Virus genome (UHGV): UHGV-0130646
DNA from: a virus
Length of the DNA: 18,996 nucleotides
Strand: one strand, 5' to 3'
Shown here piece after piece: positions 1 to 9,502 of this stretch. The notes beneath the pieces were generated by a model, which saw only the letters and a list, made by a program, of their open reading frames with translations, made no database searches and was not told the origin of the DNA. The position numbers were made by a program, and so were the translations under genes. Every line of letters starts with the position of its first letter. Within the stretch, counting starts at the first letter, position 1.

Positions 1-429
1 GATTTCTCTTTGATTTTTCCATCTCCAAGTGGTGATTTTGAAGTTAAAAAGGTTAATGCTGTAAATAAACTTGAGCAACTGATTAAAACCAGTATTCAAA
101 GAGGTATTGCTGAAGATGCTTTGATTAAAATAATTGAATCATTAGATGATAAATCTGATGATAAGATGTTTTCATTTGCAAGAAGGTTTTATCTTGCAGT
201 TAAACTTGTTGATAATGAAGTTATAACTGAAAATGGTTTCGATGAGCAAGATAAACATATGTATATTGAAACTCTCATTAATCTGTCTGATTTTGCAATG
301 GTTCGACTAATATGTATTATTATTGCTTATCTGTCATGGCCTAATGTTGTTTATTTGAAAAAATCACCAGAAGTGATGGGAGTTATAAAATCAACAGGAT
401 TAAATACGTATATTAATTCATTGAAATAA
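1..429 (+). CDS. Hypothetical protein, 5'-truncated at the window edge; AT-rich cargo ORF
   Basis: Frame is open from position 1 (codons GAT TTC TCT precede the TTG at 10 used by the ORF track) to the TAA at 427-429. GC content is far lower than the adjacent int gene. No motif recognised in the translation. Confidence 0.5.
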   Translation, partial: DFSLIFPSPSGDFEVKKVNAVNKLEQLIKTSIQRGIAEDALIKIIESLDDKSDDKMFSFARRFYLAVKLVDNEVITENGFDEQDKHMYIETLINLSDFAMVRLICIIIAYLSWPNVVYLKKSPEVMGVIKSTGLNTYINSLK

Positions 430-430
430 T

Positions 431-457
431 GGCTGCATTGAGCAGCCTCTTATTTTA
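431..457. terminator. Hairpin with T-rich tail between the convergent cargo ORF and int; probable bidirectional terminator
   Basis: GGCTGC (431-436), loop ATTGA, GCAGCC (442-447), then TCTTATTTTA. Sits between the stop at 427-429 and the int stop at 464-466. Confidence 0.5.
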
Positions 458-463
458 TGTGGG

Positions 464-1663
464 CTATTCGTGTGTTTTTTTAAACACGAAGTTAGCCCAC
501 CAATTCATTAAATCAATTCGTTGATAAAGGTAAGTCGAACGATTATATGCTTTACGGACTTCATTTTTATCGCTATGCGCTAATGCTGCTTCAATAACAT
601 CGGGATTAAAACCTTCCTCATTCATAGCTGTACTGGCTATAGAACGCAAACCATGTGCAACAAGCTTTCCTCCATAACCAATTCTTTTTAATGCAGCATT
701 AGCTGTCTGACTATTCATTGGTTGCTTAGGATTATTTCTACTTGGGAAAACATATTCACGATGTGCACTAATAGGCTTCATTATCTCTAAAATATCTAAT
801 GCTCGAACCGACAGAGGAACAATATGTTCTCGCTTGGCTTTCATTCGTCCTGCAGGGATCGTCCAGAGTTTATTCTCAAGATCGATCTCTGCCCATTGAG
901 TACCAGAGGCTTCAGAAGGGCGTACAAGTGTTAGAAGCTGCCATTCGATAAGGCAGCGAGTCGATACAGATAAATTAGACATGGCTAAAGAACGCATTAG
1001 ATTTGGTAGTTCTTCTGGTCGTAGTGTTGGCATGTTTTGCTTTTTTGGCTTCTCAAAGGCCATTCCAACCCCGGAAGCTGGATTGGCATCGATCAGCCCT
1101 GTATTTACGGCAAAGATCATTATCTCGTTAATGCGTTGCACTAGCCGACGTACAGTCTCTAGCGCCCCACGAGCTTTGACTGGCTCAAGCGCTTCAACCA
1201 ACGTTCGGGCTTTGATTTGCTGAACTGGGAGTTCACCAACGGCAGGGAATACATCTTTCTCCAATGAGCGCCAAATGTCTCTTGCGTAATCAGGGGTTAC
1301 GCTTTTGCTTTTAAGCTGGAACCAGTTAGCGGCGACCGTTGTAAAAATACTGTCCTGTGCGATTTGCTGCTGTTCCTCTGCAATTTCAGCTTGAATTTGC
1401 GGGTCAATTCCGTTGGCTAACAAGGAAAGGTAATCCGCTCTTAACCGTCGGGCGTCAGCAAGTGAAAGAGCTGGGAAGGTACCTAGCCCCATCATTGTCC
1501 GCTGCTTTGTTGCCGGACGTTGATAACGGAAACGCCATAACTTCTTACCGTTCGTTTTAACGAGTAGAAAAAGACCATCGCCATCATGCAACGTTAGATC
1601 CTTTTCTAACGCTTTAGCGCGCAGTACTTCTGTGTTGGTCAGGGGGCGTGTCGTTCTTGCCAA
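464..1663 (-). CDS. int: Tyrosine site-specific integrase, P4 / CP4-57 IntA family
   Basis: 399-aa ORF. The N-terminus (MARTTRPLT...DGDGLFLLV...KLWRFRY) and the C-terminal catalytic region (HGLRSIAST...EAALAHSDKNEVRKAYNRSTY) resemble P4-type integrases as I recall them. Confidence 0.9.
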   Translation of the reverse strand: MARTTRPLTNTEVLRAKALEKDLTLHDGDGLFLLVKTNGKKLWRFRYQRPATKQRTMMGLGTFPALSLADARRLRADYLSLLANGIDPQIQAEIAEEQQQIAQDSIFTTVAANWFQLKSKSVTPDYARDIWRSLEKDVFPAVGELPVQQIKARTLVEALEPVKARGALETVRRLVQRINEIMIFAVNTGLIDANPASGVGMAFEKPKKQNMPTLRPEELPNLMRSLAMSNLSVSTRCLIEWQLLTLVRPSEASGTQWAEIDLENKLWTIPAGRMKAKREHIVPLSVRALDILEIMKPISAHREYVFPSRNNPKQPMNSQTANAALKRIGYGGKLVAHGLRSIASTAMNEEGFNPDVIEAALAHSDKNEVRKAYNRSTYLYQRIDLMNWWANFVFKKTHE

Positions 1664-1774
1664 TTTGGCCGCTCCTTCATGAATTGGTATACGCGTTTAG
1701 GTATACATCCTACCGTATACCTAAACGTATACCAATAATCACTGGATTTAGCTGGATATCCTCGGACAACAGTA

Positions 1775-1805
1775 GACACAAAAAAGCCCGCAGAGCTTGT
1801 GCCAT
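1775..1805 (-). terminator. Rho-independent terminator on the minus strand, downstream of the tRNA-like core and upstream of int
   Basis: Minus strand reads GCCCGCA-loop-TGCGGGC followed by TTTTTTGTGT (plus coordinates: A-tract 1775-1780, stem arms 1781-1787 and 1799-1805). Confidence 0.55.
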
Positions 1806-1847
1806 GCGGGCTTTCAGGATTTCTCCGGACGTATCCGGAAGAGCAAG

Positions 1848-1870
1848 TGGTGGAGCTGGCGGAGTTTGAA
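1848..1870 (-). other. att core resembling the 3' end of a tRNA/tmRNA gene
   Basis: Minus strand reads TTCAAACTCCGCCAGCTCCACCA, i.e. T-loop-like, acceptor 3' half and CCA. From memory this resembles the ssrA (tmRNA) 3' terminus and does not match leuX, the P4 target. No complete tRNA gene is present. Confidence 0.5.
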
Positions 1871-2010
1871 TAAATATTGTATTGCTTTGATTTTTAATGA
1901 TTTTGTTTAATTCATTTTTTGTGCGTATACCTAATCGTATACCAATGGCTGTAAGTTAATGTGAAATGAAAGCGCATTTTTACTTGGATTGATGCTATAT
2001 CGTACAGGAA

Positions 2011-2310
2011 AAAAATTTTTTTTCGAAAGAACTGTTCACACTGTTCACCTTTCTGTTTTCTCCTTTTATTTCAGAGTGATAGGTGGTGAATAATGGGTGA
2101 AGGGTGAACATTCGATTCTTCACCTCCGGCATTCTGCCGGTGTGACTCATACCGGTGATTAATCCCCCGTACTGAAATCACTCAGGAAGAAAAAAGTTTT
2201 TTTTGATTTGATTGTTCACACTGTTCACCTTTCGTTTTTCTCTTTTAATTTCAGTATGATAACGGGTGAATATACGGTGAAGGGTGAACAGTGGATTGTT
2301 CACCTGCGGG
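2011..2310. repeat. crr-like cis replication region: two ~120-bp direct repeats (period 180 bp) carrying TGTTCACC/GGTGAACA iterons
   Basis: Copy 1 about 2011-2125 and copy 2 about 2191-2305 align nearly base for base. Each holds several TGTTCAC(C/A) or GGTGAA(CA) octamers. Matches the P4 crr architecture bound by alpha. Confidence 0.75.
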
Positions 2311-2363: not shown

Positions 2364-4697
2364 TCAGGTTGTTGCAGGGTCGTCACATTTTGGCAGCCAG
2401 TCGCCGTAGCTTTCCTCTTTCAGCGTCAGGTTGGTCTGTATCCCCTGTTTGGTATGGCGCTTCTCGTAATTCAGTCCGTATTCCTTCAGCATCACCGGCA
2501 GCCCCAGCCCGAACATTTTCAGACTGAGTACATTCCGGTAGCCGTTTGCCTCCATGTAGGCCAGATAGGCGTGATAGAGGTATTTACGGTAATTGCGCGG
2601 GATGATACTGGCGTTCCCCATATACATGCCGCTGGTCTGCGGCAGGGTTTCCAGATAGCCGATAAAATCAAACGTCGGGTCGGCATCCCGTTTGATGTTC
2701 AGTGCCTCGTCTGAGTTCTGCTGGGACTGAAGCAGTGACCGGGCGAGCATCGGGTCGCTGAACTTCTGCATCAGGTGACGCACGATGACCGCCAGCTCGC
2801 GGGTGATTTTGTCCTTAAGCTGCGGGTCGCGCTCCTGCGGGGCTATCTGTTCCGGGAAGTGAATAATCACCCGCCGGCGTGACACGCCGCCGCTGCGGTC
2901 GGTGAAGCGCATCGGGTTATTGTTCACGGCCAGAATCACCGCCGGGATGTGCGTGGAGTACGCATCCCGGTATTTCGGGTCCACGGACACCGCATCGCCG
3001 CCGGTGATGGCCTTGAGTCCGGCACCGTCGCCGCTCCATTTTTCCTGGTCCGGCAGGCGTATCAGTGAGAAGCCAGTTAACGCGGCACGTTCACGCGGGG
3101 ATTCCAGCGTCTCGATGGTGGCCGACGTGGCGTTATCCTCCCCGGCCAGCAGGGTGGCTATTTCGGCCATGATACTTTTGCCGCTGCCGCCGGGACCGGT
3201 CACCTCCAGAAAGAGCTGCCAGTCGTAGCGGTTTGCCAGCACCATAAACAGTGCGGCCAGAATCACGTCGCGTTTTTCCGCACGGCCACCGGCGGCACGG
3301 TCAAGCCAGCGCCAGAACGCGGGGGCGTGGGTTTCCAGCGTTTCACCGTCCACCGGCGGGGTGAAATCCACATCACACAGGGTACGCATCCAGTGTGACG
3401 GACTGTGCGGGTGGAACGTGCCGTTCTGCGTGTCGAGCACGCCGTTACGAAAGCCAATCAGGCGGCGGGAGGGGGCTTCCTGCTGCGGAATAATCAGCTT
3501 CAGGGTGTCCACCACGGAGGCCACCTTCCCGGAGGAGAACGGCGCACGCAGCCGCTGAAACAGCCCGGCCACATCCCGGGCAAAGTCCTGTGGTGGCAGC
3601 ACCTTCCAGACACCATTTTCATAACGGGACAGAAGCTGGCCGTTGGCATCGACCGCGAGCGCCTCGCCGTAATGCTCATAGATACGCATGGCCTTTTCAC
3701 TGGTACTCATGGCGGAAAACTCCGCTTCGCTCATGGTGTCGAACGGGCTTTCAGCCGGTGGCCGGATGGCATCGTAAATGGCCTTACGGGTGGCTTCCCC
3801 GCCGTACTGCGTGAAGGCATCATTCCAGTCACCGAAGACCGGCGGCAGGGCAACAACACCTTCACACGCATCTGCGGCTGCGGCGGCTTTTTTCTGGCCG
3901 TCACCGCTGAGGTCACGGTCTGCGGCAAGGACAATCTGACAGGCCGGATGCTTCTGCCGGGCAAGGCTGGCCAGAGAAAGGAGGTTCACGGAAGAAAGCG
4001 CCACCATCACCGTTTCACCGGTCAGGTGATGTACGGTAAGTGCGGTCGCGTATCCCTCCGCTATCCACAGACGTTTTCCGGCCTGATTCTGTCCTTCAAG
4101 GATGTGACAGGTGCCCCTGACCTGCCCGCCTTTCAGGGTGCGCTTACGGCCGTCAGCGCTGATTAACTGAAGGTTAACAAGTTCGCCGCTGTCGTCATAC
4201 AGTGGCACCACAAGGTCACCGGCGCGCCAGCTCACGCCACCGGCTCTGTGTGTGCCGGTCAGCATCCGGCATTCCCGGCCGGGAAAGCCCTTGCGGGTCA
4301 GGTAGGCGTTACCGGTTCCGGTACGGGTTTTCGCCATCAGGGTTTGTGCCAGTGCGGCGGCGTTCTTCCGGGCAGCGTCTGTTTCAGCACCGGCGGCGGC
4401 CGTCACTGCCGGGTCAGCCGGGGGCAGGCTGCCGGTCACGGCAGCCACCTTTGTGGCCGCGTCGGACGGGGAGACACCAAACACCTTTTCAACCAGTTTC
4501 AGGCCGTCACCGGCACCACACTGATTGCAGTACCAGGTGCCGCGCCCCTCCCTGTCATCAAAACGGAAGCGGTCACTCCCGCCACAGACCGGACAGGGCT
4601 GATGACGGTTTTTCAGCACCTGAATCCCCAGCGCCGGGAGGATACGCGGCCAGTGGCCGAGCGCATGGCTGACGGTGGCGGTTACGTTCATTTTCAT
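2364..4697 (-). CDS. alpha: DNA primase-helicase (P4 alpha type)
   Basis: 777-aa ORF, the same length as P4 alpha. N-terminal zinc-binding motif CPVCGG...YCNQCG, a primase/TOPRIM-like middle region, and a C-terminal Walker A motif (GPGGSGKS). Confidence 0.92.
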   Translation of the reverse strand: MKMNVTATVSHALGHWPRILPALGIQVLKNRHQPCPVCGGSDRFRFDDREGRGTWYCNQCGAGDGLKLVEKVFGVSPSDAATKVAAVTGSLPPADPAVTAAAGAETDAARKNAAALAQTLMAKTRTGTGNAYLTRKGFPGRECRMLTGTHRAGGVSWRAGDLVVPLYDDSGELVNLQLISADGRKRTLKGGQVRGTCHILEGQNQAGKRLWIAEGYATALTVHHLTGETVMVALSSVNLLSLASLARQKHPACQIVLAADRDLSGDGQKKAAAAADACEGVVALPPVFGDWNDAFTQYGGEATRKAIYDAIRPPAESPFDTMSEAEFSAMSTSEKAMRIYEHYGEALAVDANGQLLSRYENGVWKVLPPQDFARDVAGLFQRLRAPFSSGKVASVVDTLKLIIPQQEAPSRRLIGFRNGVLDTQNGTFHPHSPSHWMRTLCDVDFTPPVDGETLETHAPAFWRWLDRAAGGRAEKRDVILAALFMVLANRYDWQLFLEVTGPGGSGKSIMAEIATLLAGEDNATSATIETLESPRERAALTGFSLIRLPDQEKWSGDGAGLKAITGGDAVSVDPKYRDAYSTHIPAVILAVNNNPMRFTDRSGGVSRRRVIIHFPEQIAPQERDPQLKDKITRELAVIVRHLMQKFSDPMLARSLLQSQQNSDEALNIKRDADPTFDFIGYLETLPQTSGMYMGNASIIPRNYRKYLYHAYLAYMEANGYRNVLSLKMFGLGLPVMLKEYGLNYEKRHTKQGIQTNLTLKEESYGDWLPKCDDPATT

Positions 4698-5903: not shown

Positions 5904-6495
5904 GGGACACCTCCATCACCGGCAGACGGGCAGCAAGGGAGAGCACATAGTCACGGACAAGGGAACGGCGGGCGCTGCGTTCATCACCGGCGACGGTGCG
6001 AAGCATACAGATACGGGGATGACGGTCTGCGCGACGGACAGCCGCAAACACAAAGACAAATTCAGGGTGTGAGGGGGTAAGGGTCGTAGCCATAAGGCAG
6101 CCTCCTTCGAGTAGCAAATAACTGCTATCGCCGGAGTTTCCACGCTCAATGGCGATAGCCCAGACGGGGGTGGAAATACCGGCCTCGAAGAATACCGGCC
6201 AGCCCGGAGGCTGCCCCGCCTGAGCTACCATTGACTCTGCGGCATAATGAGCGGACGCGGGCAGGATGCACGGAATGCCATCTGCACGACTGACCACACA
6301 CCACACCATAATCTGGCGCTCTGTGGCGTTGATTGCGACACAAAAAAAGACGCATGGCGCGTCATATGTCGCCTTCGAGTTACACGGGTTTCCACGCCCG
6401 GCTGCCGATTTTGCGGCAGCGGAAAAACTATATCCGCAAATGCCGGAAAAAGGCAAGCCAGAAAAAGGGACTTTTTGCAGAGCGGGCATCATCAT
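5896..6495 (-). CDS. orf199-like reading frame spanning the immunity region (kil-like N-terminus?); coding status uncertain
   Basis: Three in-frame ATGs (minus-strand ATGATGATG, plus 6487-6495) overlap the vis stop and give a 199-aa frame. In P4 this interval holds kil and the CI RNA immunity determinant, so the long ORF may not be fully translated. Confidence 0.3.
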
Positions 6496-7037: not shown

Positions 7038-7142
7038 GGTGAACAGTGGTGAACAGACGGTGAACAGTCATTACTGCGATTGTTCACCCTTTAACTTACT
7101 GTATTACTTATCTTTTTTCTTAAGGTGAACAGAGGTGAACAG
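7038..7142. repeat. ori1-like origin iterons (GGTGAACAG x5 direct, one inverted)
   Basis: GGTGAACAG at 7038, 7048, 7058, 7124 and 7134, plus inverted TGTTCACCC at 7081, within an AT-rich stretch. Same octamer as in the crr repeats. Confidence 0.7.
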
Positions 7143-7220
7143 TAAAATATAAAAAAACAAACAGTAAGCCGGTTTTTCCTGCGACCTTTTCCTGGCTTGC
7201 CGGTCTGAGGATGAGTCTCC

Positions 7221-7276
7221 TGTGTCAGGGCTGGCACATCTGCAATGCGTCGTGTTGTTGTCCGGTGTACGTCACA
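7221..7276 (+). promoter_or_regulatory. Psid-like late promoter with two TGT-N12-ACA activator sites
   Basis: TGTgtcagggctggcACA (7221-7238) and TGTccggtgtacgtcACA (7259-7276), centres 38 bp apart, upstream of the sid start at 7311. Confidence 0.6.
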
Positions 7277-7310
7277 ATTTTCTTAACCTGAAGTGACGAG
7301 GAGCCGGAAA

Positions 7311-8045
7311 ATGTCTGACAACACCATCCCTGAATATCTGCAACCCGCACTGGCACAACTGGAAAAGGCCAGAGCCGCTCATCTTGAGAACGCCCGCCTG
7401 ATGGATGAGACCGTCACGGCCATTGAACGGGCAGAGCAGGAAAAAAATGCGCTGACGCAGGCCGACGGAAACGACGCTGACGACTGGCGCACGGCCTTTC
7501 GTGCAGCCGGTGGTGTCCTGAGCGACGAGCTGAAACAGCGCCACATTGAGCGCGTGGCACGCCGGGAGCTGGTACAGGAATATGACAATCTGGCCGTGGT
7601 GCTGAATTTTGAACGCGAACGCCTGAAAGGGGCGTGTGACAGCACGGCCACCGCCTACCGGAAGGCACATCATCACCTTCTGAGTCTGTATGCAGAGCAT
7701 GAGCTGGAACACGCCCTGAATGAAACCTGTGAGGCGCTTGTCCGGGCAATGCATCTGAGCATTCTGGTACAGGAAAATCCGCTCGCCAACACCACCGGCC
7801 ATCAGGGCTACGTCGCACCGGAAAAGGCTGTCATGCAGCAGGTGAAATCATCGCTGGAACAGAAAATTAAACAGATGCAAATCAGTCTCACCGGCGAGCC
7901 GGTTCTCCGGCTGACCGGACTGTCAGCGGCAACACTCCCGCACATGGATTATGAGGTGGCAGGCACACCGGCACAGCGCAAGGTGTGGCAGGACAAAATA
8001 GACCAGCAGGGTGCAGAGCTTAAGGCCAGAGGACTGCTGTCATGA
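7311..8045 (+). CDS. sid: Capsid size determination protein Sid (external scaffold)
   Basis: 244 aa from the ATG at 7311 (GAGGAG 6 nt upstream); the ORF track's GTG at 7293 is probably not the start. Coiled-coil-rich translation; stop overlaps the delta start. Length matches P4 Sid. Confidence 0.88.
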   Translation: MSDNTIPEYLQPALAQLEKARAAHLENARLMDETVTAIERAEQEKNALTQADGNDADDWRTAFRAAGGVLSDELKQRHIERVARRELVQEYDNLAVVLNFERERLKGACDSTATAYRKAHHHLLSLYAEHELEHALNETCEALVRAMHLSILVQENPLANTTGHQGYVAPEKAVMQQVKSSLEQKIKQMQISLTGEPVLRLTGLSAATLPHMDYEVAGTPAQRKVWQDKIDQQGAELKARGLLS

Positions 8046-8542
8046 TTTACTGCCCGTCGTGTGGACATGTTGCTCACACCCGTCGCGCACATTTCATGGA
8101 CGATGGCACCAAGATAATGATTGCACAGTGCCGGAATATTTATTGCTCTGCGACATTTGAAGCGAGTGAAAGCTTTTTCTCTGACTGTAAAGATTCAGGA
8201 ATGGAATACATTTCAGGCAAACAGAGATACCGCGATTCACTGACTTCTGCCTCCGGCAGTATGAAACGCCCGAAAAGAATGCTTGTTACCGGATATTGTT
8301 GTCGGAGATGTAAAGGCCTTGCACTGTCAAGAACATCGCGGCGTCTGTCTCAGGAAGTCACCGAACGTTTTTATGTGTGCACGGATCCGGGCTGTGGTCT
8401 GGTGTTTAAAACGCTTCAGACCATCAACCGCTTCATTGTCCGCCCGGTCACACCGGACGAACTGGCAGAACACCTGCATGAAAAACAGGAACTGCCGCCA
8501 GTACGGTTAAAAACACAATCATATTCGCTGCGTCTGGAATGA
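8042..8542 (+). CDS. delta: Late-gene transcriptional activator Delta (tandem Ogr-type zinc finger)
   Basis: 166 aa with two Ogr-like Cys4 halves (CPSCG...C..YC and CCRRC...CTDPGC). Length matches P4 Delta. Confidence 0.88.
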   Translation: MIYCPSCGHVAHTRRAHFMDDGTKIMIAQCRNIYCSATFEASESFFSDCKDSGMEYISGKQRYRDSLTSASGSMKRPKRMLVTGYCCRRCKGLALSRTSRRLSQEVTERFYVCTDPGCGLVFKTLQTINRFIVRPVTPDELAEHLHEKQELPPVRLKTQSYSLRLE

Positions 8543-8615
8543 GGGCTGCCGGTTAACACCGGCCGTCGCCGCACACCGTATTTTTATTCTTCAGCATGAT
8601 GAGAAAGAGATAACG

Positions 8616-9188
8616 ATGGAAAGCACAGCCTTACAGCAGGCCTTTGACACCTGTCAGAATAACAAAGCAGCATGGCTGCAACACAAAAATGAGCTGGCAG
8701 CGGCCGAACAGGAATACCTGCGGCTTCTGTCAGGAGAAGGCAGAAACGTCAGTCGCCTGGACGAATTACGCAATATTATCGAAGTCAGAAAATGGCAGGT
8801 GAATCAGGCCGCCAGTCGTTATATTCGTTCGCATGAAGCCGTTCAGCACATCAGCATCCGCGACCGGCTGAATGATTTTATGCAGCAGCACGGCACAGCA
8901 CTGGCGGCGGCACTGGCACCGGAGCTGATGGGCTACAGTGAGCTGACGGCCATTGCCCGAAACTGTGCCATACAGCGTGCCACAGATGCCCTGCGTGAAG
9001 CCCTTCTGTCCTGGCTTGCGAAGGGGGAAAAAATTAATTATTCCGCACAGGATAGCGACATTTTAACGACCATCGGATTCAGGCCTGACGCGGCTTCGGT
9101 GGATGACAGCCGTGAAAAATTCACCCCTGCGCAGAACATGATTTTTTCGCGTAAAAGTGCGCAACTGGCATCACATCAGTCTGTGTAA
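8616..9188 (+). CDS. psu: Polarity suppression / capsid decoration protein Psu
   Basis: 190 aa; N-terminus MESTALQQAFDTCQNNKAAWLQ matches my recollection of P4 Psu. Last gene before cos. Confidence 0.88.
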   Translation: MESTALQQAFDTCQNNKAAWLQHKNELAAAEQEYLRLLSGEGRNVSRLDELRNIIEVRKWQVNQAASRYIRSHEAVQHISIRDRLNDFMQQHGTALAAALAPELMGYSELTAIARNCAIQRATDALREALLSWLAKGEKINYSAQDSDILTTIGFRPDAASVDDSREKFTPAQNMIFSRKSAQLASHQSV

Positions 9189-9230: not shown

Positions 9231-9265
9231 CATCGATAAGGTGCATGGCTTTGCATGCGTTTTCC
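9231..9265 (+). terminator. Rho-independent terminator downstream of psu
   Basis: GCCATGCA (9235-9242), 9-nt loop, TGCATGGC (9252-9259), followed by TTTGCATGCGTTTT. Confidence 0.55.
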
Positions 9266-9352
9266 TGCCTCATTTTCTGCAGACCGCGCCATTCCCGGCG
9301 CGGCCTGAGCGTGTCAGTGCAACTGCATTGAAACCGCCCCGCAAAGCGGGCG

Positions 9353-9371
9353 GGCGAGGCGGGGAAAGCAC
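9353..9371. other. cos site: 19-nt P2/P4 cohesive-end sequence
   Basis: GGCGAGGCGGGGAAAGCAC matches the P2/P4 cohesive end as I recall it. It is uninterrupted, so this is a cos junction and not a mature genome end. Confidence 0.8.
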
Positions 9372-9502
9372 TGCGCGCTGGCGGTGGTGCTGATTTTATT
9401 TTTTAGCGTCTCAGCGCGTCGTGATGGCGTTTAGATTGTGCGCCGGGGCGTTGGTGTGTCTGCGGGCTGTTTTGTGCGGTGGTGAGCGTGTGAGGGCGTG
9501 AT

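Follow-up and report, generated by a model that had tools for sequence, protein, structure and literature searches.

A linked gene pair in the cargo slot of an ssrA-integrating P4-like satellite is a candidate two-component abortive-infection system

The cargo gene at the window edge and its satellite

The stretch of DNA analysed here, hereafter the window (18,996 nucleotides; UHGV virus genome UHGV-0130646), opens inside a protein-coding gene. Frame 1 of the plus strand has no stop codon from nucleotide 1 until a TAA at 427-429, which leaves 142 sense codons, and the remaining five frames of positions 1-429 contain 4-27 stops each. At a composition of 28% GC, the computed chance of 142 stop-free codons is ~2e-6. 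This frame, described in the initial annotation as an ORF open to the window edge, is the 3' end of a gene that we call B (1..429, plus strand; codons 107-248 and the stop) and matches WP_001269066.1 of E. coli E3. An intact 248-aa protein of E3, which is also encoded on IMG/VR contigs, agrees with the translation over residues 107-248 without a mismatch (100%), so that the fragment belongs to a real gene.

The stop codon of B is followed by a stem-loop of six pairs (GGCTGC-ATTGA-GCAGCC, 431..447), after which a T-rich tail (TCTTATTTTA) runs to 457. In a terminator scan, 431-457 scored as terminator-like on both strands, and the element is common to B and to the tyrosine integrase gene int of an ssrA-targeting P4-like satellite, which lies on the minus strand (464..1663; 399 aa). 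The same hairpin structure is found between B and int in E3. The convergence of B on int across a shared hairpin was therefore read correctly from the bare sequence. A sharp fall in GC content at the int stop had been noted as well. The fall is real (28.4% in 1-429, 44.8% in int and 56% in the remaining satellite), but it is gradual and starts within the 3' third of int, where 464-800 has 36% GC and 801-1663 has 48%. The difference between the cargo (29-35%) and the satellite core (54-61%) fits an acquired cargo.

An attP region follows int (1683..1946), of which the left half equals the attL side of E3 and the right half its attR side. It contains CGTATACC-type arm repeats (1683-1736 and 1923-1946), a hairpin resembling the ssrA terminator (1783-1814) and the att core, which consists of the last 23 nt of ssrA (1848-1870, minus strand). 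Between 1640 and 1870 the window does not differ from the attL (int-ssrA) side of E3, and from the core TGGTGGAGCTGGCGG onward the window follows the attR-crr-alpha side. ARAGORN and Rfam detected no tmRNA in the window, which contains no more of ssrA than its last 23 nt. Judged by this sequence arrangement, the satellite is in its excised (attP) form or forms a tandem junction, and is not the end of an integrated prophage. A 45-nt attP-specific probe had no exact match in IMG/VR or JGI metagenome contigs. Just past attR, E3 has another integrase gene together with recombinase fragments and IS1 (locus L001, 4811-6040 and 2357-4528); its ssrA site thus holds tandem islands.

The remaining satellite features are those of P4. 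The crr with its two 120-nt direct repeats is located at 2010..2309 and the alpha primase gene at 2364-4697 (minus strand). On the same strand, Rfam models of C4 antisense RNA, of isrK and of the a1/b1 C4 targets match at 6148-6433, which appears from these matches to be a complete P4-type RNA immunity region. Downstream of psu (8616-9188) lies the cos 19-mer GGCGAGGCGGGGAAAGCAC (9353..9371), which we take to be the P2/P4 cohesive end. The core genes (alpha, sid, delta, psu and int) are 97-100% identical to those of the E3 locus. Identity to the E3 satellite ends at 9378/9379, seven bases past the cos 19-mer, and P2-like genes (Q, P, O, N, M and following) fill the window to its end. Because the window matches P2-like prophages starting at 9250-9320, the join must lie within ~130 bp of the common cos sequence. 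Possibly, recombination inserted a circular satellite at the cos of a P2-like phage; an assembly that linked satellite and helper DNA through cos is also a possible origin. Neither the whole window nor the psu-cos-Q junction was found in any complete E. coli genome or phage record searched. The identity of the cargo is unaffected by this join.

The A-B operon and its products

Window positions 1-1870 match seven complete E. coli chromosomes (99.6-99.9%) and two IMG/VR contigs (99.9-100%), from which the upstream part of the cargo was recovered. The gene order in E. coli E3 (locus L001) is ssrA (complete)-int-B-A-cos-psu-delta-sid...alpha-crr-attR. This is the order of a P4-like satellite inserted at ssrA, whose psu/cos-int interval holds two cargo genes. 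The initial annotation had assigned the ORF to exactly this slot of a P4-type satellite and had proposed that most of the cargo lies outside the window, and both statements are borne out by E3: 106 codons (318 nt) of B and all of A lie to the left, so that the window holds the distal 57% of B. The frame of B is not disrupted upstream, as the full-length gene is intact in the near-identical elements. B encodes 248 aa, and the window sequence gives residues 107-248 with zero differences from E3. Upstream of B lies A, which encodes 273 aa (WP_000868779.1); its stop codon overlaps the start codon of B by 4 nt (ATGA). The two genes (NZ_CM130010.1, 1137056-1138779 with the upstream region and the terminator) are, from their arrangement, an operon with a terminator after B. 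A promoter scan upstream of A in E3 returned no consensus sigma-70 site above chance. In the integrated relatives, the operon begins ~150 nt to the right of the cos 19-mer.

The pair is rare, as it was present in 7 of 5,426 complete E. coli genomes. The int-ssrA side is matched by more than 1,000 genomes, and only these 7 carry A-B, so that the cargo content of the locus varies across satellites. With the integrases of other ssrA-type satellites (88% identity), the alignment starts only at nt 496. The boundary of cassette swapping thus seems, from these alignments, to lie ~30 nt inside the coding end of int and not at its stop.

B is, by its sequence, an inner-membrane protein with transmembrane (TM) helices at approximately residues 3-25 and 44-62. 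The positive-inside rule (R2 before TM1, an acidic loop at 26-43, a run of K/R after TM2) suggests that both termini face the cytoplasm, which would make the domain encoded in the window cytoplasmic. The AlphaFold2 model (pLDDT 88) is all-helical apart from a small beta-hairpin; TM1 is followed by TM2, which continues as a long stalk helix, then by the beta-hairpin and a helical bundle. A third hydrophobic stretch with the conserved polar residues N200, D203 and R208 was observed at residues 195-225 (window 265-357). It is listed as a Phobius TM helix in the Rousset table and is modelled by AlphaFold2 as two short packed helices, two calls that conflict on the topology of the C-terminal domain.

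We collected 37 full-length homologues of B, down to 31% identity, 36 of which were aligned (alignment A1). Of its columns, 17 are invariant and another 16 nearly so, and the invariant positions concentrate in W37-G-Q-F-G-D-Y-F-G-G-V-L-N-P50. The WGQFGDYFGGVLNP motif, invariant in the B family, is located at the periplasmic face of the second TM helix, and GDYFGG...NP is invariant in alignments A1 and A3 (N-terminal two-TM module). At E<=1e-30, a library-wide HMMER search with B returned 109 clusters (50% identity), most of them matched over the full length; at E<=1e-3 it returned 6,735, which represent a membrane-module superfamily. The weaker matches share the N-terminal part only, and some of them bear the putAbiC domain PF16872 downstream. 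In hhalign comparisons of B with its relatives, including PF16872 proteins, the match (probability 99.8, E 4e-29) was restricted to residues 5-112. PF16872 itself was absent from 36 of 36 B family members even at E<=1, and the control proteins P0041, P0050 and P0053 did match it. Some B members are labelled 'Phage abortive infection protein' in UniRef. The C-terminal helical domain, which is the part encoded in the window, is family-specific. The window fragment had been described as free of recognisable motifs. This is correct for the window part and does not extend to the whole protein, since the AbiC-like membrane motif lies upstream and the window contains only the family-specific domain.

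A has no hydrophobic segment and is soluble, and its structure model (pLDDT 87, pTM 0.84) predicts a C-terminal OB-fold barrel. We recognised no DNA-binding or antitoxin fold in A. Distant homologues (32-38% identity) reach or narrowly miss the thresholds of DUF7946 (N-terminal half) and DUF7947 (C-terminal barrel), with 27-29 bits for P0273, P0298, P0303 and P0109 against PF25678/PF25679 (gathering threshold 27 bits); E. coli A gave no match to either model at E<=1. A is more conserved than B between E. coli and Aeromonas (86-88% vs 67-69%; alignments A1, A2) and between E. coli and Cronobacter sakazakii (63% vs 50%).

Neither A nor B scored above threshold with any Pfam, NCBIfam or PADLOC model. 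In PADLOC-DB 2.0 no component matched either protein over its full length, and the hits comprised ZorB noise for B (E 0.009) and a partial match to PDC-S25 for A. The latter is weak: residues 122-205 of A match positions 91-171 of PDC-S25 (81 of 517 positions; E ~1e-5) in 5 of 23 members. Since B does not match PDC-S25 (517 aa), we rejected the possibility that this candidate is a fusion of A and B. PHROGs places A and B in the families phrog_8999 and phrog_13337, which carry no function. Profile searches of both proteins against PDB sequences gave no match at E<=1, and a Foldseek search of B against the viral structures of BFVD gave none at E<=0.001. Profile-HMM and structure searches with the full proteins, as proposed in the initial annotation, hence led to no characterised family above threshold. 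Identity with gop, beta or cII of P4, which would have made the cargo a known one, was also rejected: in 50,697 phage records, among them P4 (NC_001609.1 and X51522.1), tblastn with A and with B matched only Klebsiella phage Kp4865-4.

Linkage and genomic contexts of A and B

Wherever a full-length B was found (>50 loci), A is its immediate upstream neighbour. In GTDB, sampled with one genome per species, A was found immediately upstream on the same strand at 20 of 20 such loci, to which one divergent Pseudomonas pair is added; in IMG/VR it was present at 25 of 25 loci, plus one divergent pair. The pair also occurs in the Klebsiella phage (Kp4865-4), in an IncX1/X3 plasmid and in an Acinetobacter plasmid, and its hosts are Gamma- and Betaproteobacteria and one acidobacterial MAG. 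Beside relatives that share only the membrane module, A was found at 0 of ~60 loci (GTDB, one genome per species). Thus, A co-varies with the C-terminal domain of B and not with the AbiC-like module. In Pseudomonas koreensis (L032, 6758-14307), three paralogues of the AbiC-like membrane module lie within 8 kb, none of them with an A-type partner.

Two contexts account for most copies. In E. coli E3 and six more complete genomes, A-B occupies the psu/cos-int interval of P4-like satellites, for which the proposed carriage of anti-phage systems is well documented, as this interval is an experimentally validated anti-phage hotspot (PMC9122126). Outside E. coli, the pair is mostly located in the P2-type hotspot, where it is convergent with the portal gene Q in Pectobacterium, Pantoea, Cronobacter and ~17 IMG/VR prophages (L005, L090, L092, L096-L108, L117, L118 and L157; at ~7,100-8,750 in most). 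The P2 locus beside Q is likewise an experimentally validated reservoir of anti-phage systems (PMC13586616). The two hotspots flank cos on opposite sides. According to a 2026 survey, P2 and P4 swap defence genes almost never, and the presence of A-B in both, at a protein identity of 50-63%, is an exception to this near absence of exchange.

Other neighbourhoods are more varied. In Pollutimonas, A-B adjoins transposase fragments and a SIR2-STAND gene; in Serratia its neighbour is an Ogr/Delta remnant, and in V. cholerae it is found at the edge of a filamentous prophage. Divergent copies (~30-37% identity in B) are carried by plasmids (L174, 3141-4696; L175, 3156-4738): in conjugative plasmids of the IncX1/X3 type they are flanked by DinQ-like type I toxin genes, and in the Acinetobacter plasmid by two RelE/ParE modules.

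The pair has been catalogued before. It is system 31 in Table S1B of Rousset et al. (2022; PMC9122126), given as hypothetical + hypothetical with no Pfam match and with 49 occurrences in the P4 hotspot, and it is absent from the tables of cloned systems of that study. The new P4 systems that received names in 2026, six in number (Crouga, Bandua, Aernus, Toga, Reve and Hailong; PMC13586616), differ from A-B in domain content, and there is no sign that A-B was one of the systems assayed that year. A full-text literature search on A, B and their families returned nothing relevant. The suggestion that the ORF is a candidate for unexplored cargo is supported, with one refinement: both proteins match no characterised family above threshold and were not among the systems cloned by Rousset et al. 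(2022), and the pair is already listed as system 31.

Proposed function and comparison with known systems

A-B is probably a phage-defence pair, and we regard a defence function as likely for this candidate. More specifically, we propose that A-B is a two-component abortive-infection system carried as cargo by an ssrA-integrating P4-like satellite, with the distal part of B in the window, and we assign this reading a probability of about 0.6. We infer a sequence of events in which A, docked on the C-terminal domain of B, would act as a cytoplasmic sensor or regulator. Infection would reach A as a cue, potentially a phage protein or a single-stranded nucleic acid to which the OB-fold binds, and A would then free or activate the membrane module of B. 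B would damage the inner membrane and the infection would be aborted, which might shield the lysogen population and the satellite. We speak of 'membrane damage' by analogy to transmembrane effectors of other kinds, because the mechanism of lactococcal AbiC (Durmaz, 1992, as reviewed in PMC13064643) is not established. The division of roles, with A as sensor or regulator and B as membrane effector, is put forward tentatively and at less than even odds. It is tempting to speculate further that the OB-fold protein (DUF7946/7947) senses a product of phage replication and, through the domain encoded in the window, gates an AbiC-type effector, which would be a new two-component Abi system; in this detailed form the proposal is rather doubtful.

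The main rival to abortive infection is an addiction module. A-B might be a toxin-antitoxin system that stabilises the mobile element, with B as membrane toxin and A as its neutraliser, and any anti-phage effect would then be incidental or absent. The operon structure would suit this, since the putative neutraliser comes first and overlaps the next gene by 4 nt, as in type II toxin-antitoxin operons, and A is consistently the better conserved protein. The plasmid copies are located among toxin-antitoxin genes (DinQ-like, RelE/ParE), where addiction fits equally well. However, a typical antitoxin is small and labile, whereas A has 273 aa in two structured domains and no antitoxin fold, and most copies occupy P2 and P4 slots that are proven to hold defence systems. 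We therefore consider addiction an unlikely principal function. It is also compatible with abortive infection and is partly a sub-case of it. Superinfection exclusion, in which B at the inner membrane would block the entry of phage genomes without killing the cell and A would assist its folding or positioning, is less likely still, and we give it little credence. Like many exclusion proteins, B is a small inner-membrane protein encoded on prophages and satellites, and its conserved motif at the periplasmic face could touch the injection apparatus. Known exclusion proteins, however, usually act singly, and the strict coupling of a large cytoplasmic domain to a soluble OB-fold partner speaks for intracellular sensing. 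Moreover, the AbiC-type proteins that carry the homologous module exert their effect once phage DNA is already inside the cell (PMC13064643).

From the window one could have suspected a pseudogene, a gene in decay or a chance ORF in AT-rich DNA, without function, since the fragment is AT-rich, is cut by the edge and has no Pfam match. We rejected this reading as highly improbable. It is contradicted by the intact full-length gene in identical elements, by the 17 invariant and 16 near-invariant columns among 36 homologues that extend to 31% identity, by a confident structure prediction, by ~109 clusters (50% identity) that match over the full length, and by an open frame with a chance of ~2e-6.

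The P4 and P2 hotspots are a repeated source of new immune systems, in which system 31 still stood as 'hypothetical + hypothetical'. It can now be defined as a linked gene pair that combines an AbiC-like membrane module, a family-specific coupling domain and an OB-fold partner. Sensor and effector are apparently separate polypeptides, which could open AbiC-type membrane effectors to experiment. If the more detailed proposal, of an OB-fold sensor that gates an AbiC-type effector, is true, A-B would be a genetically separable sensor/effector version of an AbiC-like superfamily, of which ~6,700 clusters (50% identity) share the module, and would bear on a mechanism unsolved since 1992. One defence family would then be present in both P2-type and P4-type hotspots. 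With copies in P2 and P4 hotspots, on conjugative plasmids and at the edge of a filamentous prophage, A-B may also serve as a tracer of cassette movement between helper phages, satellites and plasmids.

Among known systems, the lactococcal AbiC and putAbiC proteins are the closest comparison. They share with B the N-terminal two-helix membrane module, the invariant WGQFGDYFGGVLNP motif and the long stalk helix that follows; their size is similar to that of B, and both occur on mobile elements. However, the PF16872 domain is missing from the B family, in which the C-terminal domain is a different helical domain. By its sequence B thus falls outside Pfam putAbiC, although the membrane module is common to both. 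AbiC further acts as a single gene, whereas B was never found without A, which argues against single-gene action. For A, the likeness to DUF7946 and DUF7947 (PF25678/PF25679) is marginal and was observed in its distant homologues, and both DUFs are without known function. PDC-S25 is a single 517-aa candidate to which only a short stretch of A aligns. A-B differs from other cargo of the P4 hotspot in being unrelated in sequence to gop, beta, cII or the PADLOC models of validated systems. By position and composition, it is nevertheless a member of this class: like gop-beta-cII, PARIS, Rst_Hydrolase-3TM and RT-nitrilase+TM, it is an AT-rich, cassette-swapped cargo between cos and int, and several validated systems of the hotspot likewise combine a soluble protein with a transmembrane protein that is taken as the effector (PMC9122126). 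In summary, to an already catalogued pair this study adds a candidate AbiC-like membrane effector coupled to a separate, predicted OB-fold partner, and the linkage of the two genes is its strongest new result.
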